Part shown: one piece after another, positions 33,762 to 50,454 of the stretch
How positions within the stretch are numbered: the first letter of the stretch is position 1
Layout of the letters: each line of letters starts with the position of its first letter
Source of the DNA: an uncultured Muribaculaceae bacterium
GTDB lineage: Bacteria > Bacillota_I > Bacilli_A > RF39 > UBA660
Direction: 5' to 3'
Length of the DNA: 64,000 bases
Assembly (NCBI GenBank): GCA_964551965.1
Contig: CAZKFB010000002.1
Coordinates: 1,457 to 65,456, forward strand
Program-made: the position numbers and the translations under genes
The notes under the pieces: model-generated
Told to the model about the DNA's origin: nothing
Database searches by the model: none
Seen by the model: the letters and a program-made list of their open reading frames with translations, nothing else

Positions 33762-33762
33762 T

Positions 33763-34905: not shown

Positions 34906-35698
34906 ATTATTAATTGACAATTTACATGAAAGAGATGGCATTGATGCAGAATATATGTGTTATCCACGATATGATAGCCCAACAGGAAAAATAGTTGGTT
35001 TACCATATTTAGGAAAATCATATATTTCTGATCAAATGATTGAAGAAGCTATTGCTAGAGTTAAGAGTAAACATAGTACATTTAATGGAAGACTTGGATA
35101 TATAAGTAAAGTAATGGATGAATTAAGATTATTATTTCACCGTAGATTTATTAATAATCTAAAAACAGAGATGGGAATTGGTTGGTTCAAGGGAGGAGCT
35201 GACTCCGTAGACCCAAGAGTTGCAAGTTTATATTATGCAGCAGATAGATTAGCTCATCAACCAGAAATAGAATACTTAATTAATCAAGGTTGTAATGTCG
35301 TAATAGATCGATATGCATATTCTAATTCAGCTCACCAAGGTGGTAAAAAGACAACTCCGGAAGAGAGAAATGAAGTTTATGAATGGAATGCAAGATTAGA
35401 GTTCGAACTATTAGGATTATTACCAGCCGATTTAAAGTTATTCTTACATATGCCAACTGAATATGCTAATCTCATTAAGTTAAATAGACCGGAAAAATTA
35501 GATGAACATGAAAAGAATCCAGAACACTTATATCATGCTGAAAGAGCATATCTAGAACTAGTTAAAAAATATGAATTTGATACGATAGAATGTATTAGAA
35601 AAACACAAGAAAAACCTGTTATTTCTGACATTAAATCTAAACTTGAAATAAGCGAAGAAGTATATGATATAGTAAAAAGAAATTTAACCTTAAGATAA
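34841..35698 (+). CDS. tmk: Thymidylate kinase family protein with a roughly 70-aa insertion
   Basis: IVIEGTDCSGKETQ P-loop and the VIDRYAYSNSAHQG (DRY) motif. At 285 aa it is longer than a typical Tmk of about 210 aa. Confidence 0.65.
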   Translation: MEKGKIIVIEGTDCSGKETQSKLLIDNLHERDGIDAEYMCYPRYDSPTGKIVGLPYLGKSYISDQMIEEAIARVKSKHSTFNGRLGYISKVMDELRLLFHRRFINNLKTEMGIGWFKGGADSVDPRVASLYYAADRLAHQPEIEYLINQGCNVVIDRYAYSNSAHQGGKKTTPEERNEVYEWNARLEFELLGLLPADLKLFLHMPTEYANLIKLNRPEKLDEHEKNPEHLYHAERAYLELVKKYEFDTIECIRKTQEKPVISDIKSKLEISEEVYDIVKRNLTLR

Positions 35699-35721
35699 TT
35701 GTTTAACAATTATCTTTTTTT
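35693..35721 (+). terminator. Rho-independent terminator
   Basis: agataattg-tttaa-caattatct hairpin plus T7. Confidence 0.75.
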
Positions 35722-35743
35722 GTCAAAAGAAACCTCAATTTAC

Positions 35744-35772
35744 TTGCTAATTAATAACATATCTATTATAAT
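35744..35772 (+). promoter_or_regulatory. SigA-type promoter of the T4SS operon (TTGCTA-17-TATAAT)
   Basis: Hexamers at 35744-35749 and 35767-35772. The inverted repeat tatctct-ttat-agagata (35801-35818) lies between the promoter and the Shine-Dalgarno sequence. Confidence 0.55.
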
Positions 35773-35838
35773 TATAGTAGTGTATTATAGTCTAGCACAT
35801 TATCTCTTTATAGAGATATAGATTTGGGAGTGAACTAT

Positions 35839-38625
35839 ATGTTGTTTACAATGATTGGTGATTGGTTCAATAACACAATGGCATTTTTCTTCGTAAAATT
35901 ACTAGATACAATGGCATATGGATTATTAGCAACTGCTTACAATATATTTGATGCTGTCTCAAAATTAAATTTATTTGGCGGAAGTTCTGCCGGAAATGAA
36001 TTATATGAGACAATTACATCTAGATTTTATATGATTTTATCAGTACTTATGGTATTTGTTTTTGCATATCAATTGATAATGCTAATAATAGATCCTGATG
36101 GAAAGGAACAAAAAGCTTCCGGAACACTTGTAAAAGATACATTAATATCTATAGTAGCTATTATTCTCTTACCAACACTTTTTAAATATATGGCAATATT
36201 CCAAAATCATGTTATATCAAATAATACAATGGGGGCTATAATACTTGGACAAAATGGAATGTCGGAGGATCAAGATCCAGGAAAGAATATTTCTTTAATG
36301 GTATTTATGTCTTTCTATCATCCAAATAATACGACGTATTCTACCTTCTTTGATGCAAATGGAGATAGAAGAGAAGATGCTTATAATCGATGCGTAGCTG
36401 ATAGCTCGGATGATGAACATCCAGATGGTAGAACTAGTACATGTGAAAAATTTATTGATGGGTTAGACAAATGGAAAACTCAAAAAGCTGTTGGTATTGG
36501 GGACCTAACAGGAATAAAAGACTTGCGACATTGGGTTGGAGATTCAATGGAATATATGTGGATCTTATGTACAGGTGCAGGTTTAGTTACAGCTTGGTTC
36601 TTCTTTGCTTATTCAATAGCAATGGGTACTCGTGCTGTTAAATTAGGGGTGTTACAACTTATTGCTCCAATTCCTTTAGTGTTTAGAATATTTCCACAAA
36701 CAAGAAAAACATATGAAACTTGGTTTGGTGAAATAAAGAAAACTTATTTAGAAGTATTTATAAGATTAGGAGTAATATTCTTTATAGTTGCATTAATTCA
36801 ACAAGTTCCAACTTTTATAAATGTTATATTTGATTCCAATAATGGAGCGGGATCGGGATTAACAAAATGTATTGCAACAGTATGTTTGATATTGGGTATG
36901 TTACAATTTGCTAAAGATGCTCCTGATTTATTTAAAACATTATTCTCAAATGGTGGAAACTTATTTTCAGGATTGAACTTCAGCCCTAAAGTTAGAAGCC
37001 ATGTTGAAAACAATCCTTATGCAATGAAAGGTATTGGTGCTTTAGCTGGAGCTGGAAGTAGTGCTGTTGGAGCTATGGCTAAGAGATTTAGTGAAAGTTA
37101 CAAAGCTGGTGGTGGTAGTGCTACAGGAACTTCTAGTGTGCTTAAGAGTCTTGGTGCTGGATTAACAGCACTTCCAAGAGGTTTAGTTAGTGGAGGTAGA
37201 GCAGGATTCAAAAATGCTCCAACTAAGTTAACTAGGGATGAATTAAAGAATTCAGCAGCATCGGGAGTTAGAGCTGGTCATGAATCACTAGACAATCGTG
37301 CGTTTAAGGATACCCGTGAAAATATTAATAACTTCCTAAGTGATATAGGAGATAATAATGGAAGTCAAACATTCGGTGGCGCAGTTAAGAATTTTGTAAC
37401 AAACCAAAAGAAGACTGCTGTTGATTGGGCTAAAAAGAATGCCGAAGAAGATAAAGCAAAAGCACAAGAGTTCAAAGACTTTATGTTTGGTGCAACTCGT
37501 GACTATACAAAAGCAGCAACAAGTGCAGAAACTATTTCCACTTCTGCTAAAGGTGTAGAAGAATTAGCTAAAACAGCTAATGATAAGGTTAAAGCTAGAA
37601 AAACAAATGTTGAAACAAAAGTTGGTAATGGTGAAATTTATAACCATATAGATGGTAAGTCTTATGCTAGTATGTATAAAACTGTTGATGAATTAACATC
37701 CAAGTATAAAGGAAGTTATACAACTACTTTAGATGGTAATGGTAAAATTAATTCAATAACAACTGACAATGGACAAGTGTATACAGTTAATTCTGATGGA
37801 AAGATAGTATCAAGAAGCAACAATACTCAATTAGTAAATGCTAAAACTCAGGTAGAACAAGCTATTGCTTCAAATAGAACGTTTACATCGGGTAATACTA
37901 AATATGAAAATATTAATAGAGACTTTAGTGCTATTACACAAAAGATGAATGATGCATCTACTCAAGTAGTTACATCTACAGGAAGTAATGGAGAAACAAT
38001 TAAAGAATATACTACTTCAACTAATGAAAAGTATGTAGAATATACATTTGCAGATGGAACTAAACACGTTGAAACAGCAAACGGAAATGTTAAATTTACT
38101 GTTAATGCTGACAATGTTGCTACATCAAAAGAAACAAAAACAGTTGATGCAAGTGGACATGCAGTTACTGAAAAAGTTGAAAATGCACAAATACTTTTAG
38201 ATAAGATTGAAAATAAAATCAGCCAAACTGCTGTATATAATGTTGAACAAGTATACGAAGAATTAAAAGCAGAAGAACACGAAAACCTTGCAAAAGCAAT
38301 GTCAGACTTCTCGGATGCACGTGCAACTCAATCAGCGATAATGTTACAAACATTAAAAGACAACGATTCATCATTCAGTTCACAATATAGTGCTGATGCC
38401 GATAAATTTAAAAATGACTTTAATGAAACTATTGAAGAATTCTTAAAGCATATGAGTGATAAAAATGTTACTTCGATTACCGCTGAAGAGGCAAAGAAAT
38501 TTAAGAAAATTAAAGATATCATGGGTGATGAAGTTAAACGTTCTAAAACTAATGCCGAAGCTGAGAAGAAAGCAAAAGAAGCTAGAGAAGCTGCAAAACC
38601 TAAGAAAGATGAGAGTAAGAAATAA
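35839..38625 (+). CDS. VirB6/PrgH/ConG-like polytopic T4SS channel protein with a 560-aa soluble C-terminal region
   Basis: The ATG at 35839 follows GGGAG. About 7 TM segments in the first 370 aa. First position in the operon, as in pCF10/ICEBs1-type systems. The C-terminal region is Gly/Ala-rich and then K/E coiled-coil. Confidence 0.6.
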   Translation: MLFTMIGDWFNNTMAFFFVKLLDTMAYGLLATAYNIFDAVSKLNLFGGSSAGNELYETITSRFYMILSVLMVFVFAYQLIMLIIDPDGKEQKASGTLVKDTLISIVAIILLPTLFKYMAIFQNHVISNNTMGAIILGQNGMSEDQDPGKNISLMVFMSFYHPNNTTYSTFFDANGDRREDAYNRCVADSSDDEHPDGRTSTCEKFIDGLDKWKTQKAVGIGDLTGIKDLRHWVGDSMEYMWILCTGAGLVTAWFFFAYSIAMGTRAVKLGVLQLIAPIPLVFRIFPQTRKTYETWFGEIKKTYLEVFIRLGVIFFIVALIQQVPTFINVIFDSNNGAGSGLTKCIATVCLILGMLQFAKDAPDLFKTLFSNGGNLFSGLNFSPKVRSHVENNPYAMKGIGALAGAGSSAVGAMAKRFSESYKAGGGSATGTSSVLKSLGAGLTALPRGLVSGGRAGFKNAPTKLTRDELKNSAASGVRAGHESLDNRAFKDTRENINNFLSDIGDNNGSQTFGGAVKNFVTNQKKTAVDWAKKNAEEDKAKAQEFKDFMFGATRDYTKAATSAETISTSAKGVEELAKTANDKVKARKTNVETKVGNGEIYNHIDGKSYASMYKTVDELTSKYKGSYTTTLDGNGKINSITTDNGQVYTVNSDGKIVSRSNNTQLVNAKTQVEQAIASNRTFTSGNTKYENINRDFSAITQKMNDASTQVVTSTGSNGETIKEYTTSTNEKYVEYTFADGTKHVETANGNVKFTVNADNVATSKETKTVDASGHAVTEKVENAQILLDKIENKISQTAVYNVEQVYEELKAEEHENLAKAMSDFSDARATQSAIMLQTLKDNDSSFSSQYSADADKFKNDFNETIEEFLKHMSDKNVTSITAEEAKKFKKIKDIMGDEVKRSKTNAEAEKKAKEAREAAKPKKDESKK

Positions 38626-39086
38626 TGAGTACTAATATTATTTCTAAAATTGTAGGGGATATTAAATCAGAACAAGAAAATAATACTCTTGAATACATAA
38701 ATGATTTAATATCTCTATACAAACGATTAATGAACAGTGTTGAAAAATCTTTATCGACATTAGATGCATATTATGTAAGAATTTCTAACCTAAGATCCGT
38801 AGCAATGGTTGAAGGAAAACTTGCGGAAATGTCTGATAAAGATTTCAATGAAATGTTTCGTAAAAGTAAAATAAAAGTATTAGAAAATAAAATGAATAAA
38901 GAACCAGAAATCCAAGAATACGCCGATTATATCAATTCAACAATAAAGAATGATAAGTTAGCTATTTCGCTTGGATTAAGATTCGATGAAGATAAAGCAA
39001 CTGCTGAAAATGCAATGAATAACTATATCGTTTTGAAAAAGTGTAGAAGACAATTAATAGAATCACATAATACACGTAATAGATAA
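38625..39086 (+). CDS. Small cytoplasmic coiled-coil protein, T4SS-associated, unknown function
   Basis: 1-nt overlap (TAATG) with the upstream gene. No TM segment and no recognised motif. Confidence 0.55.
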   Translation: MSTNIISKIVGDIKSEQENNTLEYINDLISLYKRLMNSVEKSLSTLDAYYVRISNLRSVAMVEGKLAEMSDKDFNEMFRKSKIKVLENKMNKEPEIQEYADYINSTIKNDKLAISLGLRFDEDKATAENAMNNYIVLKKCRRQLIESHNTRNR

Positions 39087-39105
39087 TAAAAAGGGAGGAA
39101 AGCTT

Positions 39106-39426
39106 ATGAATCAGTATTTGATACCAGCAAACTCTAAGAGGTCAATGTTAATTTTAGGGCTATTTACACCAATTGATTTAATCATAGTAGGAGTAGGTGG
39201 AGGAATAACAGCAATGCTGATGTTTATAATGTCGGCTAGTACATTAAAAGATGTAATAACGATATTAACTCCTTTACTAATAAGTGTAGTAATGGTATTA
39301 CCAGTACCAAATCATAGAAATATATGGCAATTGACAGCCAATATATATAATTATTTTAGTAAGAGAAGAACTTACTATTGGAGAGGTTGGTGTTTTACAA
39401 ATGGCGAAGAAAACGAAGAAAAGTAA
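39106..39426 (+). CDS. PrgI/TcpE/VirB3-like small T4SS membrane protein
   Basis: 106 aa with two TM segments. N-terminal segment YLIPANSKRSMLILGLFTPIDLIIV is typical of PrgI-family proteins. Lies immediately upstream of VirB4. Confidence 0.65.
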   Translation: MNQYLIPANSKRSMLILGLFTPIDLIIVGVGGGITAMLMFIMSASTLKDVITILTPLLISVVMVLPVPNHRNIWQLTANIYNYFSKRRTYYWRGWCFTNGEENEEK

Positions 39427-40009
39427 TGAACCTACAAGTAAATATACGGAAGATTGGTTACCAATTAAAAAAATTCAAGGTGGTATGATCTATGTGCCTG
39501 GATCTAATCCTTTAGAGGGAGAAAAAATAATAACAGGTATTAGAGTAGAACCAAAGAATATATTCATTTCTGATCAAGAAACTCAAGATCGTACAATTAT
39601 GGGACTTAGAAATTTCTATAATACAATTGACTTTGAATTCTGGTTAATTTGTTGTGATAGACCGGTAGATATTAACTTATATAAATCAGAACTAGAAATA
39701 ATGTATAATGAAGCGCAAAATCAACAAATACGTAAATTAATAGTTCAAGATATTAATAAGTGTGATAAGTTTATTGGCCCTGAAATTAATGCTGTTGATA
39801 CAGAATATTATATTTTATTTAAAGAAAATGCTAAAAATACGGATTTAATTCAAAAACGAGTTCATAATATGATTTCCGGATTAGCTGCGGCTGGATTAAA
39901 TTCAAGACAAATGTCTGATGATGACATTAGAGTTTTATTAGATAGTTTCTTTAATGATTCAAAAAGAGTAGAGTTTGGGACGGTGATGACTGATGTCGAA
40001 GGCAACTGA
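39401..40009 (+). CDS. VirB4-family N-terminal segment encoded as a separate ORF
   Basis: The motif DWLPIKKIQGGMIY...GIRVEPKNIFISDQETQ...FYNTIDFEFWLICCDRPVDI matches the first 200 aa or so of intact Gram-positive VirB4/TraE proteins. Confidence 0.6.
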   Translation: MAKKTKKSNEPTSKYTEDWLPIKKIQGGMIYVPGSNPLEGEKIITGIRVEPKNIFISDQETQDRTIMGLRNFYNTIDFEFWLICCDRPVDINLYKSELEIMYNEAQNQQIRKLIVQDINKCDKFIGPEINAVDTEYYILFKENAKNTDLIQKRVHNMISGLAAAGLNSRQMSDDDIRVLLDSFFNDSKRVEFGTVMTDVEGN

Positions 40010-41786
40010 AAAATCTGAAATTGCACCAAAAGGGTTGAACTTTAAAATTAATGAATTCATGATTAGTGATAAATTTGCTACGATACTTACTGTTTTAGAG
40101 TATCCAAAAGCTATTGGCCCTGGATTCTTAAGTAATATTACTAGTATTGCTGGTGTTAAAGTAGTTATTAAACATATTCCAATTGATTTTGGAACAATGC
40201 AAAAAGCAATAAATAAAGAAATTGCGGAATTAAAAGATGCATTTCAAAAAGAAAATGACCATACATTGAAAGAAAGAATTAGACTTGATTATGAATCAAT
40301 GGAAAATTTCGTTCAAATGCTTGCTGCAACTCAATCAAAGATATTTGATTTTCAAATGCATATTATGGTTCTTGCGGATACTAAAGATGAATTAGATGCT
40401 AAGAAATTCCAAGTTAAGAACTTCTTGACTGCTCTAAATATGAGAGCAATACCAATGATGTTTGAACTTGAAAAAGTACTTAAGAGTATGTTACCAGTAT
40501 TCCCAAAGCAGGATGTTGAAGCACGTATTGGTATTCCAATTCCAGCACCAACAGTTGCTGCCATGTATCCTTTCGTATTTGATAGTATTAAAGATCCAGG
40601 ATTATCAACATTGTTTGGAATAGATGCTTCGGGTGGTGTTGTATTATTTAACCAATTCTTATATCAAGTAAGAAAAGAAACTAATAGAAATAATGCCAAT
40701 ATGATTATTCTTGGTACTTCAGGTTCAGGTAAATCAACAGCAGCTAAATTACAACTTCGTAATCATATTAGAAATGGTTATCAAATTGTTTGTATCGATC
40801 CTGAAGGTGAATATGAACATTTAGCTAATCAATATGGTGGTTCATTCATTGATCTTGGAAAAGGTGGATCTTATGGAATGGTTAACCCACTAGAAGTTAT
40901 TGTTGATACTGATGATGAAGAACTGGCTCAAGGATTAGGGTATACAGTTTTAACTAGATCATTACAATCTATTAAAGCATTTATGAAATATTATAGTCCA
41001 GACATCGAAGAGGATGTATTAGCAATGTTCTCTGAGATTGTTCAAGAGACATACAAGAGATTTGGAATTGACTTCAATACAGACTTTGCTCATTTCCAAG
41101 CTGAAAATTATCCTACATTCGATGATGTATATACAACTATTAAAGGTAAACTTTTAGCAATGCCGGAAGCTACTCGTGAAAGAGATGTTATGGAACGTCT
41201 TGAATTAAAGGTTAGACCATTTGTTAATGAATTAAGATATTACTTTAATGGACATACAACAATCGAAAATAATTCCGATTTCATTGTATTTAATATAAAA
41301 GATGTTATGAACAGTGAAGAGAGTATTAGAAATGCTTTATTCTTCAACATCTTAAAGTATGCTTGGGGTTTATGTCTTGATAAATCAAAGAATACAGTTA
41401 TGATGGTTGATGAAGCTCACATTCTATTGTCTGGTGGAAATGAATTAGGTGCTGAATACTTAGCACAAATGCAAAGACGTGCTCGTAAGTACAATACAGG
41501 TACAATCATAATTACACAACAACCAACAGACTTTGCTGCTGAAAATGTTATCATGCATGGTAAAGCAATATTTGATAATGCAGCTTATTATCTTGTTATG
41601 GGATTAAAGAAACAAGCTGTTGAAGATTTAGCTAAACTAATAGATTTAAATGAAAATGAAAAAGAGAGCATTAAGACTTACGTTCAAGGAGAAGCTTTAT
41701 TTGTATGTGGTTCTCGAAGAATGAGAATTAATGTTGTAATAACTCAAGATGAATTAGATTCATTTGGATCTGGTGGTGGACTATAG
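39993..41786 (+). CDS. VirB4/TraE/PrgJ-family T4SS ATPase (lacks the first N-terminal segment)
   Basis: IAPKGLNFKINEFMISDKFATILTVLEYP motif. Walker A LGTSGSGKST and Walker B VMMVDEAH. TIIITQQPTDF. In the +1 frame relative to the previous ORF, with a 17-nt overlap. Confidence 0.85.
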   Translation: MSKATEKSEIAPKGLNFKINEFMISDKFATILTVLEYPKAIGPGFLSNITSIAGVKVVIKHIPIDFGTMQKAINKEIAELKDAFQKENDHTLKERIRLDYESMENFVQMLAATQSKIFDFQMHIMVLADTKDELDAKKFQVKNFLTALNMRAIPMMFELEKVLKSMLPVFPKQDVEARIGIPIPAPTVAAMYPFVFDSIKDPGLSTLFGIDASGGVVLFNQFLYQVRKETNRNNANMIILGTSGSGKSTAAKLQLRNHIRNGYQIVCIDPEGEYEHLANQYGGSFIDLGKGGSYGMVNPLEVIVDTDDEELAQGLGYTVLTRSLQSIKAFMKYYSPDIEEDVLAMFSEIVQETYKRFGIDFNTDFAHFQAENYPTFDDVYTTIKGKLLAMPEATRERDVMERLELKVRPFVNELRYYFNGHTTIENNSDFIVFNIKDVMNSEESIRNALFFNILKYAWGLCLDKSKNTVMMVDEAHILLSGGNELGAEYLAQMQRRARKYNTGTIIITQQPTDFAAENVIMHGKAIFDNAAYYLVMGLKKQAVEDLAKLIDLNENEKESIKTYVQGEALFVCGSRRMRINVVITQDELDSFGSGGGL

Positions 41787-41805
41787 TATTTAGGTGGGTG
41801 TTACA

Positions 41806-44118
41806 ATGAATTTTAAAAATCAAAATAAGAATAGCAACAAAAAAGGTAATTTAATTACCCTTTTTGTCGTTATGGTATTTAGTATAATAATTGGTATAGA
41901 CAATGTATTTGCTGCAAACTTTAAATATAGTGAGTTCAATTGGGATCAATTCTATGAATCAAAGAAGAGTTTCTGGGAAGATGCTTGTAAAGATGAAAAT
42001 GGTGAAGTAGATGGCAAATGCAGTTATGAAGTATTAAAAGCCCAAAAGAAATTCTATACTAAATTTTATAAGATGTTAGCAAAATATGAGAGAAAAGGTC
42101 TATTTATTAATGATGATATTATACTAGAGACTGTTTTCTATGAAATGAATCCTAGTCAATTTGCCGATAATGGAAAAGAATATATGGAAAACTATTATGA
42201 ATCAGGAAGTGATTTATCAGATAAAAAAGGTCTTTATATCATTGATGAAGCTGATTTAGAAGATCCAGATATTGAAGATGACTATAGCAATGAGAGTGCA
42301 GCAACTTATTTCCAAAAAGAAAATGATACTCTTAAGACCTTAGTTAAAAATATGATATCTAATTCTACAAGTTGTTATGGTGTTTATGGCAATCCAACAG
42401 TTCATACGGCATCAGATGGTTCTACTTATGAATCATGTGATAATGGTGGAGTTATAACTTATGTTAAAGGAAGAGGGAAAAAATGTGCCGATACTTTACA
42501 AAGTAAAAATGAATTAGGTTTCTGGCAATATTATGTAAGTAAATGGGCTTATGATGAAACATTACCACTTTTACTTCGTGTTTCTTTCTTACTAAGAAGT
42601 CCGGAAGATAAATATCATACTGCATGTAAGGAAATTACTGGTTATCCGGAAGAAACAGCGTATGTATATAATGATAAACCGGAAGTAAGTACAAATCGTT
42701 ATTTTGATTTTTTAAGCTATTCAACTTATTTTGATGGTAAAATTCATTTACAGGAGCATTTTAAAGATAATATATTAGATCCTGCAGGAGTTGATTGTTT
42801 AACATCGACAGTATGTGAAAATTCTCTTGAAGCAAAAGGAGAATATGACATATATGAAGGAGAATTAATTAATTCAAGAAGACAAATAATAGATGATATT
42901 ATTGGTATATTAAATAATTATGGATATGATATTACTTATGATCCATTAGAAGCAAATTCTTATAATGCTGCGGAAGCTCAAGAAGCTGTTCGTAAAACTT
43001 TCTATTGGCCAATTGGTAGTGATGAAACAGAAGAGAGAAATGGTGTTATCTATGCTGATGGAGAACCAGCTAGTAAAACAGTTGAAAGTTATTATGGAAA
43101 GAGAAAAAATGCTATTACAGGAAAAGAGGAATTCCATTATGGTATAGATATTACTGGTGTTGATGGGGTTACTAATGTCGTTGCTGTATATCGTGGAGAA
43201 GTAATTGCTGTAGTTAATAGTTGTTCCGTTGGTGATACAGCTTGTAATGAAGGTTATGGAAATATGATTATTCTATCACATTCAAATGGAGATTATACGG
43301 TATATGCTCATTTAGCTAGTGTTGATCCATCAGTTACAATGGGTGTAAGTGTTGATAAAGGTCAATTAATTGGAAAAGTAGGAAGTACGGGAGCAACAAA
43401 TACTGCTAATTTACATTTCGAATTACGTAAAGGTGGAAATTCAGTAACTTATGCTGTTGATCCTTTAGGCGAATTTAATCCAGAAAATCCACGTCCTGAA
43501 GTAGCTGCCGGAGATTTCTCAGTTCATGAGACATCTTTAACTAAAGAAGAATTTGTTTCAAGATTGAGAAACTATTGTAATATTTCTAGATGTTCAAATG
43601 CTTTCTATAATGTATTTGTTATGAATGCTGAAAGTGTTTATGATACTTCTATTAATAATAATGTTAATCCGGAATTAGTCGTTGTTCGTGGAGCTAAAGA
43701 AGGAATGAGTCCTGGCGGAAATACTCATAACTATTGGGGTATTGGATGTTATAATGGAGCTGGTGTTTCAGCTTGTCATATCTATGGTGATTTAGGAGCC
43801 GGAATTGGGGGCTTTGCAAATGCCGTTAAAGGTTATAATACAGTTTCGGAAATGATGAGTAAATATGCTTTTATTGGACACTATTGGTATAATCCAGGAA
43901 GTTGGAGTAATGGTGGATGTAAGTATTATCCATATATTCAACAATATATGAGTCCTGAACGTTCAAGTTACGTTGGAGGAGTATGTAATAGTGGAAGAAG
44001 TTGTTCTACATCAGGCGGAGAATATTGTGTTAAAACTAATGATGAAGATCAAAAGGCATATTCTATGTATAATATAAAAGGTATGGTTGATATGAGGTTT
44101 GTTGCATTCGGAGTATAG
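41806..44118 (+). CDS. T4SS cell-wall hydrolase: TM anchor, M23 (LytM) peptidase and a C-terminal putative glycosidase-like domain
   Basis: M23 motifs HYGIDIT...GYGNMIILSH...YAHL...GSTGATNTANLHFELR. The C-terminal 200 aa (NPELVVVRGAKEGMSPGG...NYWGIGCY) are loosely GH73/lysozyme-like. Confidence 0.75.
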   Translation: MNFKNQNKNSNKKGNLITLFVVMVFSIIIGIDNVFAANFKYSEFNWDQFYESKKSFWEDACKDENGEVDGKCSYEVLKAQKKFYTKFYKMLAKYERKGLFINDDIILETVFYEMNPSQFADNGKEYMENYYESGSDLSDKKGLYIIDEADLEDPDIEDDYSNESAATYFQKENDTLKTLVKNMISNSTSCYGVYGNPTVHTASDGSTYESCDNGGVITYVKGRGKKCADTLQSKNELGFWQYYVSKWAYDETLPLLLRVSFLLRSPEDKYHTACKEITGYPEETAYVYNDKPEVSTNRYFDFLSYSTYFDGKIHLQEHFKDNILDPAGVDCLTSTVCENSLEAKGEYDIYEGELINSRRQIIDDIIGILNNYGYDITYDPLEANSYNAAEAQEAVRKTFYWPIGSDETEERNGVIYADGEPASKTVESYYGKRKNAITGKEEFHYGIDITGVDGVTNVVAVYRGEVIAVVNSCSVGDTACNEGYGNMIILSHSNGDYTVYAHLASVDPSVTMGVSVDKGQLIGKVGSTGATNTANLHFELRKGGNSVTYAVDPLGEFNPENPRPEVAAGDFSVHETSLTKEEFVSRLRNYCNISRCSNAFYNVFVMNAESVYDTSINNNVNPELVVVRGAKEGMSPGGNTHNYWGIGCYNGAGVSACHIYGDLGAGIGGFANAVKGYNTVSEMMSKYAFIGHYWYNPGSWSNGGCKYYPYIQQYMSPERSSYVGGVCNSGRSCSTSGGEYCVKTNDEDQKAYSMYNIKGMVDMRFVAFGV

Positions 44119-44126
44119 GTGATATT

Positions 44127-44648
44127 ATGAAAATAAGTGAAACAGAGAGAAAAGTATTAATTGTATGGTTAATTATTGGTGTATTAATATTCATAGCAAT
44201 AGTTTTAATTAATGTAAAACCCAAAACTAATGAATCGAAAAAACCTAATACTCAACCGGGGGAAAACCATGTAAGTGATCGTGTTCGTTACTATACCGTA
44301 AAAAATGCAATTAATAAGTATTATTCATATAAGAATGCATCAGATTATGATTCTGTACTTAAGATACTAGATGCTTCTTATGTTGAAGAAAATCATATTG
44401 ATGAAGATACTATTACCACATTTATAGGAGAATCTGATAGTCTTTTAACTTTTGATACTGGAGTTATGTGTTTAAAGAGTTATAATTCAGGTGTGTATGT
44501 TTATGTTGTTGAAGGTTATGAAGAAACAATGACTACCGGTGAGACAAAAAATAAAATGTATTATCAAGTTACTTTAGATGGCAATACTTCATTATTTAGT
44601 TTACTTCCAATAAGTGAGAGTATTTATGGAGGTGTTTGCAATGAATAG
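44127..44648 (+). CDS. VirB8/PrgL/TcpC-like (TM plus NTF2-like) T4SS protein
   Basis: N-terminal TM segment followed by a domain of about 120 aa with NTF2-like alternation. Position after the hydrolase, as in pCF10. Confidence 0.45.
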   Translation: MKISETERKVLIVWLIIGVLIFIAIVLINVKPKTNESKKPNTQPGENHVSDRVRYYTVKNAINKYYSYKNASDYDSVLKILDASYVEENHIDEDTITTFIGESDSLLTFDTGVMCLKSYNSGVYVYVVEGYEETMTTGETKNKMYYQVTLDGNTSLFSLLPISESIYGGVCNE

Positions 44649-45144
44649 TTTTATCTCATCATTAAAAGAAAATAAAAAGTTAGTAATAATTACATTGGTA
44701 GTTATTGCAATAGTTATTGGTGTTGCTATTTATAATAGTTTAAAACCAGAACCACAACACAATCCAGAAATAAATGAATATAACGAAGTACATTATATAA
44801 AGAAAAATTATCAAGTAAATGAATATAGTGTAGTTAATATTTCTGAATTAGATTTATTAAATGCATATTTAAAGAAATATATTAATTTATCAATTAATAA
44901 ACCGGAAGAGGCATTTAATATGCTTTCTAAGGAATCTAAAGAATCATTCCATAATAGTGTGGATGAATATAAAGAATATGTAAATAGTATTACTTCTATT
45001 TATTCAAAAGATAATGAAGTAGTAAAATATCGTAAAGGAGAAGGAAGAAACAACACAGATATTGTTGATTCTGAAAGTAATAAATATACTATTAAAGAAC
45101 ATTCAACTTGGGATATAGAAATTACATTGAATGGAAAAGAGTAA
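44641..45144 (+). CDS. Second VirB8-like (TM plus NTF2-like) T4SS protein
   Basis: The ATG at 44641 follows GGAGGTG (8-nt overlap). Same architecture as the previous gene. Confidence 0.45.
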   Translation: MNSFISSLKENKKLVIITLVVIAIVIGVAIYNSLKPEPQHNPEINEYNEVHYIKKNYQVNEYSVVNISELDLLNAYLKKYINLSINKPEEAFNMLSKESKESFHNSVDEYKEYVNSITSIYSKDNEVVKYRKGEGRNNTDIVDSESNKYTIKEHSTWDIEITLNGKE

Positions 45145-45173
45145 AATAAAATTTTAGGGAAGAAGGTGATTTT

Positions 45174-46634
45174 ATGGGTGTAGCAAATATAGCAAGTAGT
45201 GCAGCTAGTGGAGCAGCTAGTTCAGCAGCATCACAAGCTACTTCATCGGTTGCATCAAATGCAGCAGCAAAAGGTGCAAGTGTTGGAGGATCATTACCAT
45301 CATCAAGCATGCCTGCACTTAAAACTTCATCTCCTGCACCTATGAATGGTGGAGGACTCCCATCTAGTTCGCCATCTAACGGATCTCATTCTTCTTTACC
45401 AGATATTGAAGAGAAATCTTCAAGTGTTGAAAAAGATACGCATTCTAATGTGGATAGAGAAACTAATTCAGGACAAAGTGAGATAGAACAAGAAAATTCT
45501 CCTTCTACGGAAGAAAATGTACCTGAAGAGACTACTGATTCGAAAGAAAATTCTAAAGAGAAAAAATCACAAGATATTGATGATGGAAAATATCATGCTA
45601 AAGATAATCAAGAAGTCGGTCCAGGACAAAAGATAGATGAGGATGGCAATGTCGTTGATACTGGAAACAAAAAATTTACTAAAGCCTTAGCTGTTGGAGC
45701 AGCTACCTATTTTGGGGGAGCCGAAGGTGGAGAGACTGCCAATGCTCTAGCTAAGACAGATGCCGGAAACAAATTAACGGGTGTTGTTGCCGATCAAATG
45801 GATAAATCAGTTGCCGGTAAGATAACGGAAGATTTAGGTGATTCGGGAGCAGCAGACGCTATTTTAGATACTGCCGATACCGTAAGTGCAGCTAAAAGTG
45901 GAGATGTTAAAGGAGCTTTAAAATCAGGGAAGAGTGCTATAAAAAATCTTGGTAAGACTATTAAGCACTATGCTCTTATCATTGGTCTATCTCTACTTGT
46001 AGTCTTGGGACCAATTATTATGGTTGGAGTTGTAATTGCTGCAGTATGTGGACCAGTACTTGGTGGATTTATGGATGTTACAAGTGCATTCGGTGAATTT
46101 GTCGATGATGTTGGAGACTTTTTTACTGGTGAAAATGATATTACTGGTACCACCGGGGGAGATAATTTAGAAGAAATAATGCAAAATGCTGATCAAATAG
46201 TAGCTGAAGTTCCTGACTATTCATCACTTACAGATGTTCAACAAGGAATTGTTGCAGCAGCAGCAGCCGGAGTAGCATCAGGTAGACCATATAGTTATGG
46301 AGGAAAACCAACAGGGCCTGGATTAAGCGGAATACCAACGACAGGAATAGATTGTTCGGGATTTGTAGGTTGGTCAATTTGGACAGCAACCAATAAAAAA
46401 CCTGGAGCACTCGGAACTTCAACAATGGTAGCCAATATAGGTACTATTTTTGAAGAAATACCAGAAAGTGAACTAAAACCTGGCGATATTGGATTAAAAC
46501 ATAAAAATTCAGGATCAAATCATACTGGAATATATGCAGGAAATGGAATGTGGCTTCATGCGGCAAATTCTACTTCCGGTTTAATTAAAAGCAATTATAA
46601 AAGCTTTACTGTATATTTAAGATATGTAGGTTAA
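45174..46634 (+). CDS. Membrane-spanning NlpC/P60 (C40) peptidoglycan endopeptidase with an Ala/Ser-rich disordered N-terminus
   Basis: C-terminal GIDCSGFVGWSIW (catalytic Cys) ... SNHTGIYAGNGMWLHAANS (His). Central double TM segment (ALIIGLSLLVVLGPIIMVGVVIAAVCGPVLGGF). Confidence 0.8.
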   Translation: MGVANIASSAASGAASSAASQATSSVASNAAAKGASVGGSLPSSSMPALKTSSPAPMNGGGLPSSSPSNGSHSSLPDIEEKSSSVEKDTHSNVDRETNSGQSEIEQENSPSTEENVPEETTDSKENSKEKKSQDIDDGKYHAKDNQEVGPGQKIDEDGNVVDTGNKKFTKALAVGAATYFGGAEGGETANALAKTDAGNKLTGVVADQMDKSVAGKITEDLGDSGAADAILDTADTVSAAKSGDVKGALKSGKSAIKNLGKTIKHYALIIGLSLLVVLGPIIMVGVVIAAVCGPVLGGFMDVTSAFGEFVDDVGDFFTGENDITGTTGGDNLEEIMQNADQIVAEVPDYSSLTDVQQGIVAAAAAGVASGRPYSYGGKPTGPGLSGIPTTGIDCSGFVGWSIWTATNKKPGALGTSTMVANIGTIFEEIPESELKPGDIGLKHKNSGSNHTGIYAGNGMWLHAANSTSGLIKSNYKSFTVYLRYVG

Positions 46635-46646
46635 GGAGGATTATAA

Positions 46647-47357
46647 ATGAAAAAAGTGTTAGTTTTAATAACCATTTTTGTTTTAACATTCTCATTTAAT
46701 GTATTTGCTATGGATTTTAAAACAGTAAATGTTACAGCAACTTTTTCTGAAGAAATTGATTTTGCTGATATAGAAAAAGTTAAATTAATAATTTTCGGTG
46801 AGGGTATAGATTATGTCGATGATGCAGCATCAGTATTAAATATCATCGATTTAACAAAAGATAATAATTATACCAAATCGATAAACGATACTAAAATAAC
46901 CGATCAAAGTAATTTATTTGCTATGGTAGATAAAGATAGATATGGGGTATATAATTGTGATATATTATTAGATACTAGTCTTATCGATACAGCAAATATT
47001 ACTATTCAAATAAGTAAAAACAATTTTCCTAAAAATGAATTTTCACAAATACCTTCAGACATTATCGATAGAATAATTGGAAAAAGTACGACAAATAATA
47101 ATTCGGGAAATACAAATGGTAATAGTGGAGATAATAATAGTGAAGACAATGAAGTAACTGTTGGAACAACGACAACTAAACCAACAACGACAACAAATGA
47201 AATAATTTATCGAGAAGAATTGAAAAAAAGAGAAAAAGAAGAACAAGATAAAAAGAAAAATAATATTGTATCTATTGTACTTTATGTTATTATAGGTGCT
47301 ATACTATTAATTGGTTTAGTATTTATAATGTATAAATTTATAATGGCTAATAAATAA
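46647..47357 (+). CDS. Tail-anchored surface protein (signal peptide, 140-aa domain, N/T-rich stalk, TM)
   Basis: Signal peptide VLTFSFNVFA, then NNNSGNTNGNSGDNN, TTTTKPTTTT and a C-terminal TM segment. Confidence 0.55.
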   Translation: MKKVLVLITIFVLTFSFNVFAMDFKTVNVTATFSEEIDFADIEKVKLIIFGEGIDYVDDAASVLNIIDLTKDNNYTKSINDTKITDQSNLFAMVDKDRYGVYNCDILLDTSLIDTANITIQISKNNFPKNEFSQIPSDIIDRIIGKSTTNNNSGNTNGNSGDNNSEDNEVTVGTTTTKPTTTTNEIIYREELKKREKEEQDKKKNNIVSIVLYVIIGAILLIGLVFIMYKFIMANK

Positions 47358-47412
47358 AGGTAGAAAAATTACCATAATTATATTATAATAAATAAGAGAA
47401 GGAGGGGCTGCT

Positions 47413-50373
47413 ATGAAACTTAAAGTGTCACCAAAAGATTTGGCAATTTTTGGCGTGTTTTGCGTATTTTTACTTTATTTTAGTGCAATAGCCGTCCTTA
47501 ACGTTTTATCACTTATTAATGAAGGAACTTTCTATGGATTGAGTCCTTTTGAAGCTTTTACACCTAAATATATATTTCCAACTTTATTATTATTCTTTTC
47601 TGTAATAATTGCTGTATTCTTTAGTGTTTCTTCATCTATTTTCTCAAGATCTAAGGGAATAGGTTTGTCATTGGGAGAAAAAGAAGAAAAAGGATATTCT
47701 CGTTGGCTAAAAGAAAAAGAGATGAAAAAAGCATACAAAGTATATAAAGTTGGTGTAAGGGATGTTGATGCATCAGCAGCCGGAATAGTTTTAATAAATA
47801 ATGGAAAAGATATGTGGGTCGATGATTCCGAGTTCCATACATTAGTTATAGGTATTACTGGATCAGGTAAAACAACTGCAGTTGTTGATCCATTAATTTA
47901 TAGTTTATGTAAGCATCGTGAGAGTATGATATTTACCGACCCTAAAGGTGAAATATATACAAACCATGCTGAATTACTAAAGGCGCGTGGATATAATATT
48001 GTTGTTTTAAACTTCCGTGATCCGCAAATGGGTAATGCATGGAATCCATTAACTTTACCTTATCAATTGTATCATGAAGGTAATGTTGATAAAGCAATTG
48101 AGTTAGTTGATGACGTTGCAAACAACATTGTTAAAGATGCCAAGGCTCAAGATCCTTTTTGGCAAAACTCTTCATCAGACTACTTTGCTGGTTGTACTTT
48201 AGGTCTTTTGGAAGATGCTAAACTTGAAGAAGTTAACTTAAATTCAATAAGTTTAATGACAACTGTTGGAGAAGAAAAGTTTGGTGCGGGCTCTACTTAT
48301 ATCAAAGAATATTTTGGTTTAAAGGGAGAACAATCAAGTGCTTATACTTTTGCAAGTAATACGATAAATTCACCAACAGAAACAAAAGGTGGTATCCTTT
48401 CAACATTCCGTCAAAAGATACGTATTTTCTCATCACGTGAAAATCTATCTGAGATGTTATCTTATTCAGATTTTAATATGCGTGATATTGGTAAACAGCC
48501 AACAGCCGTATTCATGATAATTCATGATGAAAAGACAACGTATCATGCTTTAGCAACAATATTCATTAAACAATGTTATGAAACATTAATATCTGTTGCT
48601 CAAGAAAATGGTGGTAAATTACCAGTAAGAACTAACTTTATACTTGATGAGTTTGCCAACATGCCACCTCTTAAAGACGTTACAACAATGGTTACTGCAG
48701 CTCGTTCAAGATTAATTAGATTTACATTTATTATTCAAAACTTTGCCCAATTAAACGATGTTTATGGTAAAGAAGATGCTGAAACAATTAGATCAAACTG
48801 TGGTAATTTAATATATCTTTTAACAACTGAGTTAGCTGCACTTGAAGAAATATCTAAATTGTGTGGAGAAGTAAAAGTTGATAAAGATAAAGATGATAAA
48901 CGTGAGTCAAAACCATTAGTTACGGTATCAGACTTACAAAAAATGAAACTTAATGAAGTTATTATATTAAGAAGCCGTGTAAATCCATTTAAAACTCAGC
49001 TAGTACAAGCATTTAATGTTGACTGGGGAGATAAAGAATTTGGAAAAGCTCAATTTGTTGAAAGACAAAAGAAAGAGATTCAATACTTCGATGTTAAAGA
49101 ATTTGTTAAAGTTCGTAAACGTAGTAAAATGGGAATCGATGATAAAGGAAATGGTGGCGGTTCAACTCCAAGCTTCTCATCATTGATGGGTGGTGGAATG
49201 CCTGGTGGAAATGGAATGCCTAATGGTATGCCAAAAATCCCAACTTTCGAAGAATTTATGGCAGCTAGAAATAGTCAAAAGAAAGAAAACCCAAATCCAT
49301 CACCAGCACCAACACCTCAAAAACCAGTTATGCCAACATTCGATGTTGATGACTTAGTAAAGAGAATTGATGCTAAGATTGCTGAATTGGAAGCTCAAGA
49401 AAAGGAAGAGGAAGCAAAGAAAAATGGAACTGCACCAGTTGAAAGTGCAATACCAACTCCAAGTATTCCGACTCCAAATATTCCAATCCCAACAGCGCCA
49501 ACTAGTCCAGTTCCTAATATTCCTGATGGAATTAATCCGGTTACTAGCCAAGTTACACCACCAATATCTAGTATGCCTAATATTGAGGTTAATGCAAATG
49601 TTGAAAGCACACCAGCTAGTCCTGTAAGAGTTCAACCTGTTGATGTCGAAGAAATTAAAGCTGAACCTGTACAACCAGGATTCAACCCATTTGCTGCTCC
49701 AGTAGAACCAAAGACTACTAATTTTGTAAATAAAGATATTATCGATGGAATAGATACAATAGAAACTTCTCCAATTAGTGCACCAAAGATTGAAAGTGTA
49801 CCAAAAGAAGAACCAAAGCCTAACAATGGAGAAATAAATAATTTTAGAGATTTAATGAATAACGGAGCTCAACCAATTAATAATATGGTGCCTCCATCAA
49901 CTACTATAAATCAACAAACTCCTGTTGCTCCAGTGAGTCAAATGCCAGAGCCAGGTACAATGAATCAAGTAGCTCCTGTTAATCCAGTAAATCTAGTATC
50001 TCAAGGCGCACCAGTAACTCCGGTAGTTCCCGTTGCACCTACAGTACCTGAGACAATCATTGATATTCCAATTGAACCGGAATTATCAGGAATAGTTGAT
50101 CCAACAACACAACCAATTAAGAATAGTGTTTCACAAATTAAACCTGAAACACCTATTAATGTACCAACGATTGATATTAATGCATCAAATACCCAGAATG
50201 TTGCACCTCAAAGTCCAATAAATACAGGAATACCAACACCATCCGTGCCTAATATTCCAAATAATGGACCAGTACAAGTACAAAATGGATTACAACAACA
50301 AAACACTAGTGCACCAGTTATACAAAATGTACAAAATGAAGAATTCTTTGATGATTTCTTTGATAATGATTAA
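47413..50373 (+). CDS. VirD4/TraG-family type IV coupling protein with a roughly 410-aa Pro-rich C-terminal extension
   Basis: Two N-terminal TM segments. Walker A VIGITGSGKTT, FTDPKGEIY, Walker B ILDEFANMP, and FIIQNFAQL. The low-complexity tail ends in NEEFFDDFFDND. Confidence 0.85.
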   Translation: MKLKVSPKDLAIFGVFCVFLLYFSAIAVLNVLSLINEGTFYGLSPFEAFTPKYIFPTLLLFFSVIIAVFFSVSSSIFSRSKGIGLSLGEKEEKGYSRWLKEKEMKKAYKVYKVGVRDVDASAAGIVLINNGKDMWVDDSEFHTLVIGITGSGKTTAVVDPLIYSLCKHRESMIFTDPKGEIYTNHAELLKARGYNIVVLNFRDPQMGNAWNPLTLPYQLYHEGNVDKAIELVDDVANNIVKDAKAQDPFWQNSSSDYFAGCTLGLLEDAKLEEVNLNSISLMTTVGEEKFGAGSTYIKEYFGLKGEQSSAYTFASNTINSPTETKGGILSTFRQKIRIFSSRENLSEMLSYSDFNMRDIGKQPTAVFMIIHDEKTTYHALATIFIKQCYETLISVAQENGGKLPVRTNFILDEFANMPPLKDVTTMVTAARSRLIRFTFIIQNFAQLNDVYGKEDAETIRSNCGNLIYLLTTELAALEEISKLCGEVKVDKDKDDKRESKPLVTVSDLQKMKLNEVIILRSRVNPFKTQLVQAFNVDWGDKEFGKAQFVERQKKEIQYFDVKEFVKVRKRSKMGIDDKGNGGGSTPSFSSLMGGGMPGGNGMPNGMPKIPTFEEFMAARNSQKKENPNPSPAPTPQKPVMPTFDVDDLVKRIDAKIAELEAQEKEEEAKKNGTAPVESAIPTPSIPTPNIPIPTAPTSPVPNIPDGINPVTSQVTPPISSMPNIEVNANVESTPASPVRVQPVDVEEIKAEPVQPGFNPFAAPVEPKTTNFVNKDIIDGIDTIETSPISAPKIESVPKEEPKPNNGEINNFRDLMNNGAQPINNMVPPSTTINQQTPVAPVSQMPEPGTMNQVAPVNPVNLVSQGAPVTPVVPVAPTVPETIIDIPIEPELSGIVDPTTQPIKNSVSQIKPETPINVPTIDINASNTQNVAPQSPINTGIPTPSVPNIPNNGPVQVQNGLQQQNTSAPVIQNVQNEEFFDDFFDND

Positions 50374-50398
50374 AACAAGTTTTAAACTTGTTTTTTTT
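50372..50398 (+). terminator. Rho-independent terminator
   Basis: aaaacaagt-tttaa-acttgtttt hairpin plus T-run. Confidence 0.75.
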
Positions 50399-50454
50399 AT
50401 ATTGATATGTGCTTTCATAATAGACAAATACTAAATAAATACATAATATACAAT

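Follow-up and report, generated by a model that had tools for sequence, protein, structure and literature searches.

A chromosomal type IV secretion operon without a nearby relaxase in RF39 gut bacteria

The DNA analyzed here, which we call the window, is a 64-kb stretch (64,000 nucleotides) of contig CAZKFB010000002.1 from an uncultured bacterium of the order RF39, and the subject of this work is an operon within it that encodes a Gram-positive-type type IV secretion system (T4SS). Eleven intact open reading frames (ORFs), all on the plus strand, occupy positions 35824-50373 and either overlap or lie 55 nucleotides (nt) or less apart. An earlier note on this DNA had described eleven tightly coupled genes, and we find the same ORFs with the same spacing. 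The features of the locus are as follows, in window coordinates (TM, transmembrane; aa, amino acids).

35692..35722, plus strand: upstream border hairpin after the tmk-like gene, AAGATAATTG-TTTAA-CAATTATCTT followed by T7; AT-rich, read by eye
35744..35772, plus strand: promoter-like site TTGCTA-17-TATAAT, 10 of 12 consensus matches
35824..38625, plus strand: g1, VirB6-like polytopic membrane protein with a long C-terminal extension (Pfam TrbL/VirB6, E=0.0067, 16.7 bits)
38625..39086, plus strand: g2, 153-aa cytoplasmic all-helical protein (no Pfam or NCBIfam match)
39106..39426, plus strand: g3, VirB3/PrgI-like protein with two TM segments (weak Pfam TcpE match, E=0.0095, 16.8 bits)
39401..40009, plus strand: g4, TrsD-like, stand-alone homologue of the VirB4 N-terminal domain, 202 aa (NCBIfam VirB4_plasma positions 92-280, 1.7e-15)
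39993..41786, plus strand: g5, VirB4 ATPase in a short, 597-aa form (Pfam AAA_10, TraG P-loop and CagE families; NCBIfam VirB4 models)
41794..44118, plus strand: g6, anchored peptidoglycan hydrolase, M23 plus a C-terminal lysozyme-like region (Peptidase_M23 4e-22, 78.6 bits; one N-terminal TM segment)
44127..44648, plus strand: g7, TM-anchored NTF2-like protein, VirB8-compatible (N-terminal TM helix; AlphaFold2 (AF2) model with a predicted local distance difference test score (pLDDT) of 65.6)
44614..45144, plus strand: g8, paralogue of g7, probable start ATG 44641 (hhalign of g7 and g8 profiles, probability 91.5%, E=8.8e-7; N-terminal TM helix)
45174..46634, plus strand: g9, NlpC/P60 endopeptidase (NLPC_P60 5.9e-12, 45.9 bits; disordered N-terminal region, TM segment at aa 263-304)
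46647..47357, plus strand: g10, surface protein bearing a signal peptide and anchored by a C-terminal TM segment (sequence features and TM prediction)
47413..50373, plus strand: g11, VirD4 coupling protein (T4SS-DNA_transf 3.4e-54; NCBIfam conju_CD1115 300.9 bits, cutoff 250)
50335..50370, plus strand: C-terminal tail motif of VirD4, NEEFFDDFFDND, which ends the window protein
50372..50399, plus strand: downstream border hairpin, AT-rich with T8, directly 3' of the VirD4 stop; read by eye
50407..50667, plus strand: small rhodanese-like ORF (NCBIfam ThiI_C rhodanese-type domain, 3.7e-6; Cys loop CKHGIKS read from the translation), of uncertain membership in the system

VirB4, VirD4 and a cell-wall hydrolase, three of the components by which a monoderm T4SS of the MPF-FATA (mating-pair formation) type is recognized, are present. 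The earlier labels for VirB4, VirD4 and the M23 and NlpC/P60 hydrolases are borne out by firm family matches, with VirB4 matching Protein Data Bank (PDB) entry 4ag5 at 7e-57 and VirD4 matching T4SS-DNA_transf at 3.4e-54; the translation of g5 contains a Walker A motif (GTSGSGKST) and a Walker B-like motif (MMVDEAH). The 202-aa gene at 39401-40009, left unnamed in the earlier gene list, can now be assigned as a TrsD-like homologue of the VirB4 N-terminal domain, because it matches positions 92-280 of a VirB3-VirB4 fusion model and its orthologues carry Pfam PF26593 (TraC-like). It also resembles hyp227, the 227-aa protein of plasmid pBMB67 (1.4e-10), and its profile aligns weakly with TrsD of pGO1 (hhalign, E=8.5e-4, probability 24%).

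The VirB6-like and PrgI/VirB3-like labels given previously fit in topology and position, but all of the matches behind them fall below curated cutoffs. Specifically, g1 has approximately 6-7 TM segments within aa 58-358, and its best NCBIfam matches are MMCAP2_0566 (3.3e-8) and the Mbov_0396 TM protein of an integrative and conjugative element (ICE; 2e-6), with the ICE TM models at 27-33 bits. Its start is probably ATG 35839, behind GGGAG, and a g1 orthologue holds the same position in every related locus with enough upstream DNA. Positions 6-96 of VirB4_plasma match g3 (E=0.003); PrgI of pBMB67 matches g3 orthologues in 23 loci (best 3.6e-5), and g3 of the window itself is unmatched. The description of g7 and g8 as two VirB8-like proteins holds insofar as they are paralogues with a TM anchor and the g7 model is NTF2-like, but the model is of moderate confidence (pLDDT 65.6) and the VirB8 homologue TrwG ranks only 27th in Foldseek (E=0.1), behind NTF2-like folds at E 0.01-0.1 and with no match at or below 0.001. 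The NCBIfam TrsH/TraH model matches g7 weakly (0.011), and its profile shows no similarity to TrsH of pGO1. The two proteins are thus compatible with VirB8, a name we use for them as an unproven label.

The product of g2 is confidently modeled by AF2 as a helical bundle (pLDDT 88.9). Searched against the PDB with Foldseek, this model has a best E of 0.38 and no match at or below 0.001, and shows neither a relaxase-type fold of the HUH or ribbon-helix-helix (RHH) kind nor a known T4SS part; g2 therefore hides no recognizable relaxase. A gene of similar size fills the g2 slot in three related loci (139 aa in L081, 155 aa in L084 and 172 aa in L054; we refer to individual loci by such numbers) and is absent in L070. 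The hydrolases turn over between lineages: the M23 plus lysozyme-like and NlpC/P60 pair of the window, with Phage_lysozyme or Phage_lysozyme2 also found in g6 orthologues, is replaced by C39_2/C70 in one lineage and by SpoIID plus CHAP in another. Orthologues of g10 in L070 and L081 bear lipoprotein-type signal peptides and are 27% identical to each other.

The coupling protein combines two N-terminal TM segments, an ATPase domain reaching to approximately aa 560 and a disordered linker of approximately 420 aa rich in Pro, Asn and Gln. Most orthologues have G-x-TGSGKT as their Walker A motif, and some show S/A/N and K-S variants of it. The linker is hypervariable and ranges from 150 to 480 aa, whereas the tail that follows it is sharply conserved: a [FY][FY]DDFF core plus 2-7 mostly acidic residues terminates all 53 VirD4 orthologues that we compared (53/53). 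The lead-in is [ST]DDx[FY][FY]DDFF in orthologues, with NEE replacing [ST]DD in the window copy. A scan of approximately 1.6 Mb of RF39 DNA for the pattern [FYW]2DD[FYW]2 returned 57/57 VirD4 ORFs and, among all other ORFs of 40 aa or longer, none. A 'VNIDNDSxVV' patch lies just upstream of the tail in many orthologues. We read the VirD4 tail as a likely docking motif for a partner that is itself conserved; the tail of the F-plasmid coupling protein TraD docks the relaxosome protein TraM in a similar way. A coupling protein whose docking-type tail is conserved argues for export of a specific substrate over pure uptake.

Around the operon, the two features that had been read as regulatory borders are present but more modest than described. 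The TTGCTA-17-TATAAT site is at 35744-35772, yet promoter-like sites are no commoner in the window than expected by chance (84 found against 93.8 expected from shuffled sequence), and it is thus a candidate promoter only. Hairpins followed by T runs do flank the operon, but 'strong terminators' is too loose a term: they are AT-rich, and a terminator scan flagged neither border because each hairpin contains fewer than three G-C pairs. As noted before, there are no direct repeats at the borders; our search for att sites there returned only chance-like imperfect matches of 14-30 nt. An Rfam search of the window found a tRNA-Arg only, with no leader or riboswitch near the operon.

The operon is likewise indistinguishable from its surroundings in composition and codon style, in agreement with the earlier description. 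Synonymous codon usage correlates with that of the flanks at r=0.992 (control 0.990), and G+C content at third codon positions (GC3) is 0.167 in the operon and 0.162 in the flanks; its codon usage is fully ameliorated to that of the chromosome. Housekeeping genes stand on both sides, infC-rpmI-rplT upstream and DedA, RmuC, FtsEX, CdsA, RseP and GyrB downstream, and the window ends with gyrB and a partial ORF that resembles GyrA by sequence inspection only. The window also encodes MraY, FtsW, sortases and FtsEX-PcsB, which indicates a walled organism and fits a Gram-positive-type machine.

The flanking genes are as had been reported, but their constancy is partial. Between rplT and the T4SS the window has a block of tdk, histidine-phosphatase, AAA_28 kinase-like and tmk-like genes (32617-35698), which is also present in L001-L015. 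The block is absent in L081-L083 and in L084, whose VirB4 is 86% identical to that of the window and whose operon directly follows infC-rpmI-rplT. The tdk-to-tmk block is therefore a local insertion in the window, and the borders of the operon are unfixed at the finest scale. We had considered a functional link between the tdk/tmk genes and the T4SS and dropped it given the absence of the block in the sister species. The most constant neighbor of the operon is the rhodanese-like ORF, which has a single domain and lies just after VirD4 in many RF39 loci; the window copy is apparently shorter at its N-terminus (86 aa against 99-106 aa in orthologues).

The earlier note had found no relaxase, integrase or replication gene in the 64 kb. 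Of the 51 non-nested window ORFs with 100 aa or more, our Pfam scan covered 50 (all except a 268-aa ORF at 58632-59438) and detected no relaxase (MOB), integrase, recombinase, DDE transposase or Rep family in them. Relaxase, integrase and Rep families are also missing from the precomputed Pfam annotation of neighbors (four loci, two related species). In phmmer searches covering the window and 87 related loci, with approximately 20 kb around the operon in each, the MobP3 relaxase of pBMB67 has no homologue, and the pGO1 Nes relaxase (MobA-MobL), MobV, MobC, recombinase, TopB and SSB have no match. These two bodies of DNA define the scope in which we speak of a missing relaxase.

Homologues of the window VirB4 number in the thousands. 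The 120 top matches share 76% identity or more with it, and their sources are gut metagenomes and metagenome-assembled genomes (MAGs) labeled Bacilli, Mollicutes or Tenericutes. In a scan of one genome per GTDB species the best match is a water-deer caecum MAG at 98% identity; Firmicutes CAG:582, Mycoplasma sp. CAG:776, Acholeplasma sp. CAG:878, Firmicutes CAG:884 and a number of UMGS 'Tenericutes' are among the other carriers. Genus CAG-776 has been placed in the RF39 family UBA660 (PMC13155120) and genus CAG-878 in the RF39 family CAG-822 (published GTDB assignment), so the operon spans at least two RF39 families. By a pattern-seeded scan that gives a lower bound, at least 526 GTDB species representatives (one genome per species) encode a close VirB4 relative.

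Comparing related genomes, as the earlier note had suggested, gave a result that favors domestication. VirB4 is 70-98% identical to the window copy across 80 loci, and in all of them (80/80) the recognizable core genes are collinear and on one strand. Of the 54 loci with enough downstream DNA, 44 have VirD4 as part of the operon. The eleven-gene layout recurs in a species at 77% VirB4 identity, with DedA and RmuC following, and all eleven ORFs are intact in the window, in its closest relative (L001) and in the related species of the same layout.

The operon has also diverged in step with the chromosome. Pairwise VirB4 distances correlate with those of RmuC (r=0.957), DedA (0.90) and ribosomal protein L20 (0.81), each with a Mantel p of 0.001 or less, and the mean VirB4 distance (0.123) is smaller than that of L20 (0.149). 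The ratio of nonsynonymous to synonymous substitution (dN/dS), which the earlier note had proposed to measure for virB4 and virD4, indicates purifying selection on all eleven genes: against the nearest species it is 0.03-0.27 at dS 0.4-1.1, lowest for g3 (0.05), g4 (0.03) and VirB4 (g5, 0.028), with 0.149 for VirD4, 0.27 for g10 and 0.084 for L20. Co-divergence and low dN/dS together mean that the operon is neither a recent arrival nor a relic; it is vertically inherited with the chromosome and under purifying selection. It displays none of the patchiness, foreign composition or discordant phylogeny of mobile DNA.

In other RF39 lineages the operon is preceded by additional genes. Loci with VirB4 at or below 79% identity to the window carry 1-7 paralogous two-TM proteins directly upstream of the VirB6-like gene, and 22 of 38 such proteins match the Pfam family PF18895 T4SS_pilin (best 2.7e-6), with 2 matching T4SS_CagC. 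Farther upstream, some of these loci bear a Tad-like module.

L019-L083: pilin-array loci, for example L081:5104-5888, L070:5528-7184, L064:55-6680 and L078:3-6732
L070:327-5440; also L068:1-1976, L041:630-1523 and L076:520-1305: Tad-like module upstream of the pilin array

The module in L070 has a T2SSE ATPase (3.8e-27), a pair of polytopic proteins, a further pair that is TadE-like by eye and a conserved 337-aa protein, and the TadA-type ATPase and membrane proteins of pBMB67 have homologues in 5-8 loci. The sub-clade of the window itself (the window, L001-L016 and L084) has neither a pilin array nor a Tad-like module near the operon, and the 64-kb window has no T2SSE gene; the best pilin hidden Markov model (HMM) match within this sub-clade has an E of only 0.001 (L084). 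Weak matches of the pilin HMM to g1 (E 0.02-0.5) were treated as noise from TM composition. Among monoderm T4SSs, VirB2-like pilins have been described only for Patescibacteria (PMC12857230).

Based on these observations, we propose that the operon encodes a domesticated Gram-positive T4SS (MPF-FATA, pBMB67/pGO1-like) for contact-dependent translocation, fixed in the chromosome and inherited vertically across RF39, rather than a transfer module of a mobile element; we give this reading a probability of roughly 0.6. The earlier note had left a choice between a domesticated or stranded conjugation module and a repurposed T4SS. Synteny, co-divergence, dN/dS and codon usage favor domestication and show that the operon is not a stranded island, and the missing relaxase together with order-wide fixation argues against self-transfer. 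In the mechanism that we envisage, VirB6-like g1, VirB3-like g3, TrsD-like g4 and the VirB4 ATPase would form a membrane translocon, for which the two anchored NTF2-like proteins (g7 and g8) would serve as a scaffold. The anchored M23/lysozyme-like and NlpC/P60 hydrolases would open the peptidoglycan, and surface protein g10 may mediate contact with another cell. The acidic-aromatic tail of VirD4 could then recruit a conserved cytoplasmic partner or substrate, either a protein or a nucleoprotein, and feed it to the channel. The expected outcome is contact-dependent transfer into a neighboring cell as a core function of the auxotrophic RF39, and the conserved core operon suggests that RF39 depends on direct contact with other cells.

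Several points weigh against this reading. The assembly of the products, the direction of transport and its dependence on contact are proposed from gene content, and the VirB6-, VirB3- and VirB8-type assignments come from weak or fold-level matches. A chromosomal relaxase may act in trans, which is compatible with a search covering 64 kb of this genome. The number of species, 526, is a lower-bound count and not a fraction of RF39, and membership of the loci in RF39 follows record titles and two published genus-to-order placements. Upstream neighbors of the operon vary between sub-clades, and DedA/RmuC follow VirD4 in only 13 of the 30 loci with 2.5 kb or more of DNA downstream. Finally, 10 of 54 loci have no VirD4 within 9-10 kb downstream of VirB4, so the operon is not invariant across the order; it is split or reduced in some RF39 lineages. 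These ten loci (L036, L044, L045, L047, L052, L054, L057, L058, L063 and L064) include Mycoplasma sp. CAG:776 and Firmicutes CAG:884. Their VirB4 is intact and 70-76% identical to that of the window, and in L054 the operon ends after VirB4.

A stronger form of the proposal is possible, and we put it forward tentatively: that RF39 live by cell contact in the manner of Saccharibacteria, with the T4SS as an indispensable conduit that most lineages would combine with VirB2-like pili and a Tad-like module, that this would be a second independent domestication, and that the FFDDFF tail recruits the cargo. RF39 lack pathways for fatty acids, a number of amino acids and vitamins (PMC6784871).

A serious if doubtful alternative is that the T4SS still moves DNA, with a relaxase encoded elsewhere or by a relaxase-independent, mycoplasma-like route, and passes chromosomal DNA or small mobilizable elements between RF39 cells, a kind of sex that would offset genome decay. 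Retention of VirD4 in the operon with a conserved docking tail would suit this function by analogy with TraD and TraM, and nearly all known monoderm T4SSs do move DNA (PMC12857230). The best NCBIfam models of VirB4 and g1 are mycoplasma ICE families, and mycoplasma ICE pores support unconventional chromosomal transfer (PMC6030558); the scores, however, fall far under the cutoff (348 against 590 bits). One frequent downstream neighbor is the recombination gene rmuC, but this linkage holds in just 13/30 loci. Weighing further against DNA transfer, neither the operon, nor the rest of the 64 kb, nor the DNA near the operon in the 87 loci contains a relaxase, SSB, topoisomerase, primase, ArdC or partition gene, and the slot that the MobP3 relaxase occupies beside VirD4 in pBMB67 is empty here.

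We consider it unlikely that the operon is instead an import or scavenging device that takes up DNA, nucleotides or macromolecules from lysed or attached neighbors, like ComB or in the role proposed for Patescibacteria. The hydrolase set could open the cell wall of prey, the window encodes a secreted-type non-specific endonuclease (8740-9483), and tdk, tmk-like and nucleoside-kinase-like AAA_28 genes lie directly upstream of the operon; the tdk-tmk block is, however, absent beside the operon in the sister species, and the linkage is thus local. The ComB system, which works with ComEC, is not known to have a coupling protein, whereas VirD4 is conserved here and carries a tail of the substrate-docking type. 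Speaking for uptake, RF39 genomes reportedly do not encode nucleic-acid synthesis de novo and are missing many further pathways (PMC13155120; PMC6784871). Speaking against it, in S. epibionticum DNA uptake by ComEC is not essential while the T4SS is (PMC12857230).

That the operon belongs to an ordinary ICE, with relaxase, integrase and att sites beyond the 64 kb, is very improbable. The DNA read amounts to 64 kb here and approximately 20 kb per related genome, and coupling protein and relaxase genes can sit far from virB4 in some elements (PMC12102498). Against this stand the housekeeping genes on both sides, collinearity in 80/80 loci with co-divergence of the neighbors, codon usage identical to the flanks and a best match among 72,556 plasmids of only 30% VirB4 identity; the relaxase, integrase and flanking repeats that the earlier note took as the signature of such an element are absent from the DNA examined. 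A decaying, non-functional relic of an old conjugative element, which the missing relaxase, the fast divergence and swapping of middle genes between lineages and the loss of a nearby VirD4 in some lineages might suggest, is refuted by eleven intact ORFs, intact ATPase motifs, dN/dS of 0.03-0.27 at dS 0.4-1.1 and a VirB4 more conserved than L20, and it retains next to no probability.

Other observations in these sequences deserve mention. L20 of the window (30804-31340) has a C-terminal extension of approximately 60 aa that is Rho_N/HeH/SAP-like and conserved in one related species (L084:5668-6207). At 10298-18931 the window encodes a 2226-aa SH3_3 surface protein followed by two anchored proteins, one of 171 aa and one, Cadherin-like and Thr-rich, of 483 aa. 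L081-L083 have a comparable small anchored protein and a Cadherin-like protein (weak tblastn, 9e-6) within a few kb upstream of their T4SS, and these adhesin-like genes may be loosely linked to the T4SS. In a sortase-dependent pilus or adhesin locus at 24244-26912, a sortase stands beside a protein of 718 aa that has SpaA-type domains and a thioester domain (TED), and a second sortase-like gene lies at 780-1778. Within a 622-nt gap that is otherwise unassigned, positions 23193-23465 encode a 90-aa ORF rich in Cys, His and Pro (…HEVPHVIPVHTKIVNHHIIRHTY…CDTCEHVYDPCC…), which is spore-coat CotD-like by eye only. Six loci with a typical RF39-type operon (L009, L011, L022, L030, L043 and L059) are labeled 'uncultured Muribaculaceae bacterium', a label that is probably not the true taxon. 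Loci L033 and L041 are the same T4SS region, with identical VirB4, at both ends of one contig (DAJPHG010000001.1, 1,191,766 bp), most simply explained as the overlap of a circular genome of approximately 1.18 Mb.

Few uncultured bacterial orders are as widespread in the guts of humans and animals as RF39, which is known chiefly for a small genome and many auxotrophies (PMC6784871) and has been linked to chicken growth (PMC13155120). Our literature search found no paper connecting RF39 with type IV secretion, and T4SSs go unmentioned in two papers on reduced-genome gut lineages and environmental Tenericutes. Across hundreds of species the ATPase of this T4SS changes more slowly than a ribosomal protein does, which would mark an overlooked trait central to the lineage. 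The operon points to a contact-dependent lifestyle, and hence to co-culture strategies for isolating RF39. It also offers experimental handles, since the coupling protein is retained in the operon and its sharply defined C-terminal motif could be used as bait for substrates.

Comparison with known systems places the operon among, but apart from, Gram-positive conjugation machines. At 50% clustering the VirB4 clade has one full-length representative, with two small sister clusters at 43-45% and all others at or below 35% identity; its nearest named relatives are from Thomasclavelia, Coprobacillus, Solobacterium, Erysipelotrichaceae and a Mycoplasmatota plasmid. The best plasmid match is pBMB67 of B. 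thuringiensis (NC_009841, 30% identity), in which a MobP3 relaxase, VirD4 (CD1115), a small two-TM protein, TrbL, PrgI, the 227-aa protein, VirB4 and later a Tad-like module follow one another. It shares with RF39 the VirB6(TrbL)-PrgI-TrsD-like-VirB4 order, a VirD4 of NCBIfam CD1115 and a small two-TM protein before VirB6, and with several RF39 loci the Tad-like module (SAF/CpaB-like protein, TadA-type ATPase and two membrane proteins), which in RF39 is upstream. Unlike the operon, pBMB67 has its relaxase directly upstream of VirD4 and carries replication and partition genes, none of which have homologues here, and its VirD4 is without the FFDDFF tail. The trs/tra regions of pGO1, pSK41 and pIP501, the prototype of the TrsD-bearing MPF-FATA subclass, run, as the operon does, from a VirB3-like protein through TrsD-like protein, VirB4, hydrolase and small anchored protein to a CD1115 VirD4. 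In pairwise searches only VirB4 (1.6e-43) and VirD4 (1.1e-26) of pGO1 are detectable, and pGO1 differs in having the Nes relaxase, TopB and SSB and in placing VirB6 after VirD4 instead of first.

The mycoplasma ICEs (ICEA/ICEB, with CDS5 VirD4, CDS16 and CDS17 VirB4), whose hosts are relatives within Bacilli, supply the best NCBIfam models for g5, g4, g3 and g1 and have the same CDS16-CDS17 order. The operon scores well below their cutoffs (VirB4_plasma 347.8 against 590 bits; Mbov_0396 27.5 against 70), and the single mycoplasma CDS17 (VirB3-VirB4) corresponds to three separate genes. As mobile elements, mycoplasma ICEs occur in multiple copies, have inverted repeats at their boundaries and use a DDE transposase (CDS22), none of which is seen in the window. 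No relaxase is named among the ICEA genes, though the transfer model assumes one (Baranowski et al. 2018, PMC6030558), and these ICEs lack VirB1-like and VirB8-like parts (PMC12857230), whereas the operon has two hydrolases and two NTF2-like proteins. A precedent for non-DNA cargo is the 89K T4SS of Streptococcus suis, which has a comparable Gram-positive VirB1/3/4/6/8/D4 set and exports the protease SspA-1 (PMC12857230); this likeness is by description and not by sequence, and 89K is an acquired, strain-specific pathogenicity island.

The closest parallel in organization and setting is found in Patescibacteria, including Saccharibacteria (Wang et al. 2023; Quinonero-Coronel et al. 2025), which have a chromosomal, relaxase-less MPF-FATA-like T4SS with TrsD-VirB4 pairs and VirB2-like pilin arrays, essential for S. 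epibionticum to grow epibiotically (PMC12102498, PMC12857230). The operon follows the same pattern of domestication, being chromosomal and vertically inherited, with no relaxase nearby and with a TrsD-like plus VirB4 pair. Both systems combine a TrsD-like protein with a short VirB4 and a hydrolase, the RF39 operon adding candidate counterparts of VirB3/PrgI, VirB6 and the VirB8-like protein, and both are lineage-wide in genome-reduced auxotrophic hosts. The pilin arrays beside the patescibacterial T4SS are matched in RF39 lineages at or below 79% VirB4 identity and not in the sub-clade of the window. RF39 differs in belonging to Bacillota, class Bacilli, and in keeping VirD4 within the operon in 44/54 loci with a conserved tail; in Patescibacteria only 148 of 5,713 coupling proteins lie near virB4, and the coupling protein is not essential (PMC12102498). 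We had considered a patescibacterial origin, as L20 with a Rho_N tail, the sortases and the one-strand gene order looked like the candidate phyla radiation (CPR), but we dropped it, since the record titles and nearest relatives are Bacilli. The nearest named relatives of the RF39 VirB4 are from Erysipelotrichales and Mycoplasmatota, not Patescibacteria; the system clusters with no named patescibacterial protein and probably stems from Bacilli-type elements. The patescibacterial system has been called unique among monoderms, and non-conjugation roles of Gram-positive T4SSs have been posed as a question (PMC12857230). The RF39 T4SS appears akin to the patescibacterial type, new in its lineage and set apart by an operon-borne VirD4 with a distinctive tail, and it would constitute a second, independent case beyond conjugation, in ordinary Bacillota.

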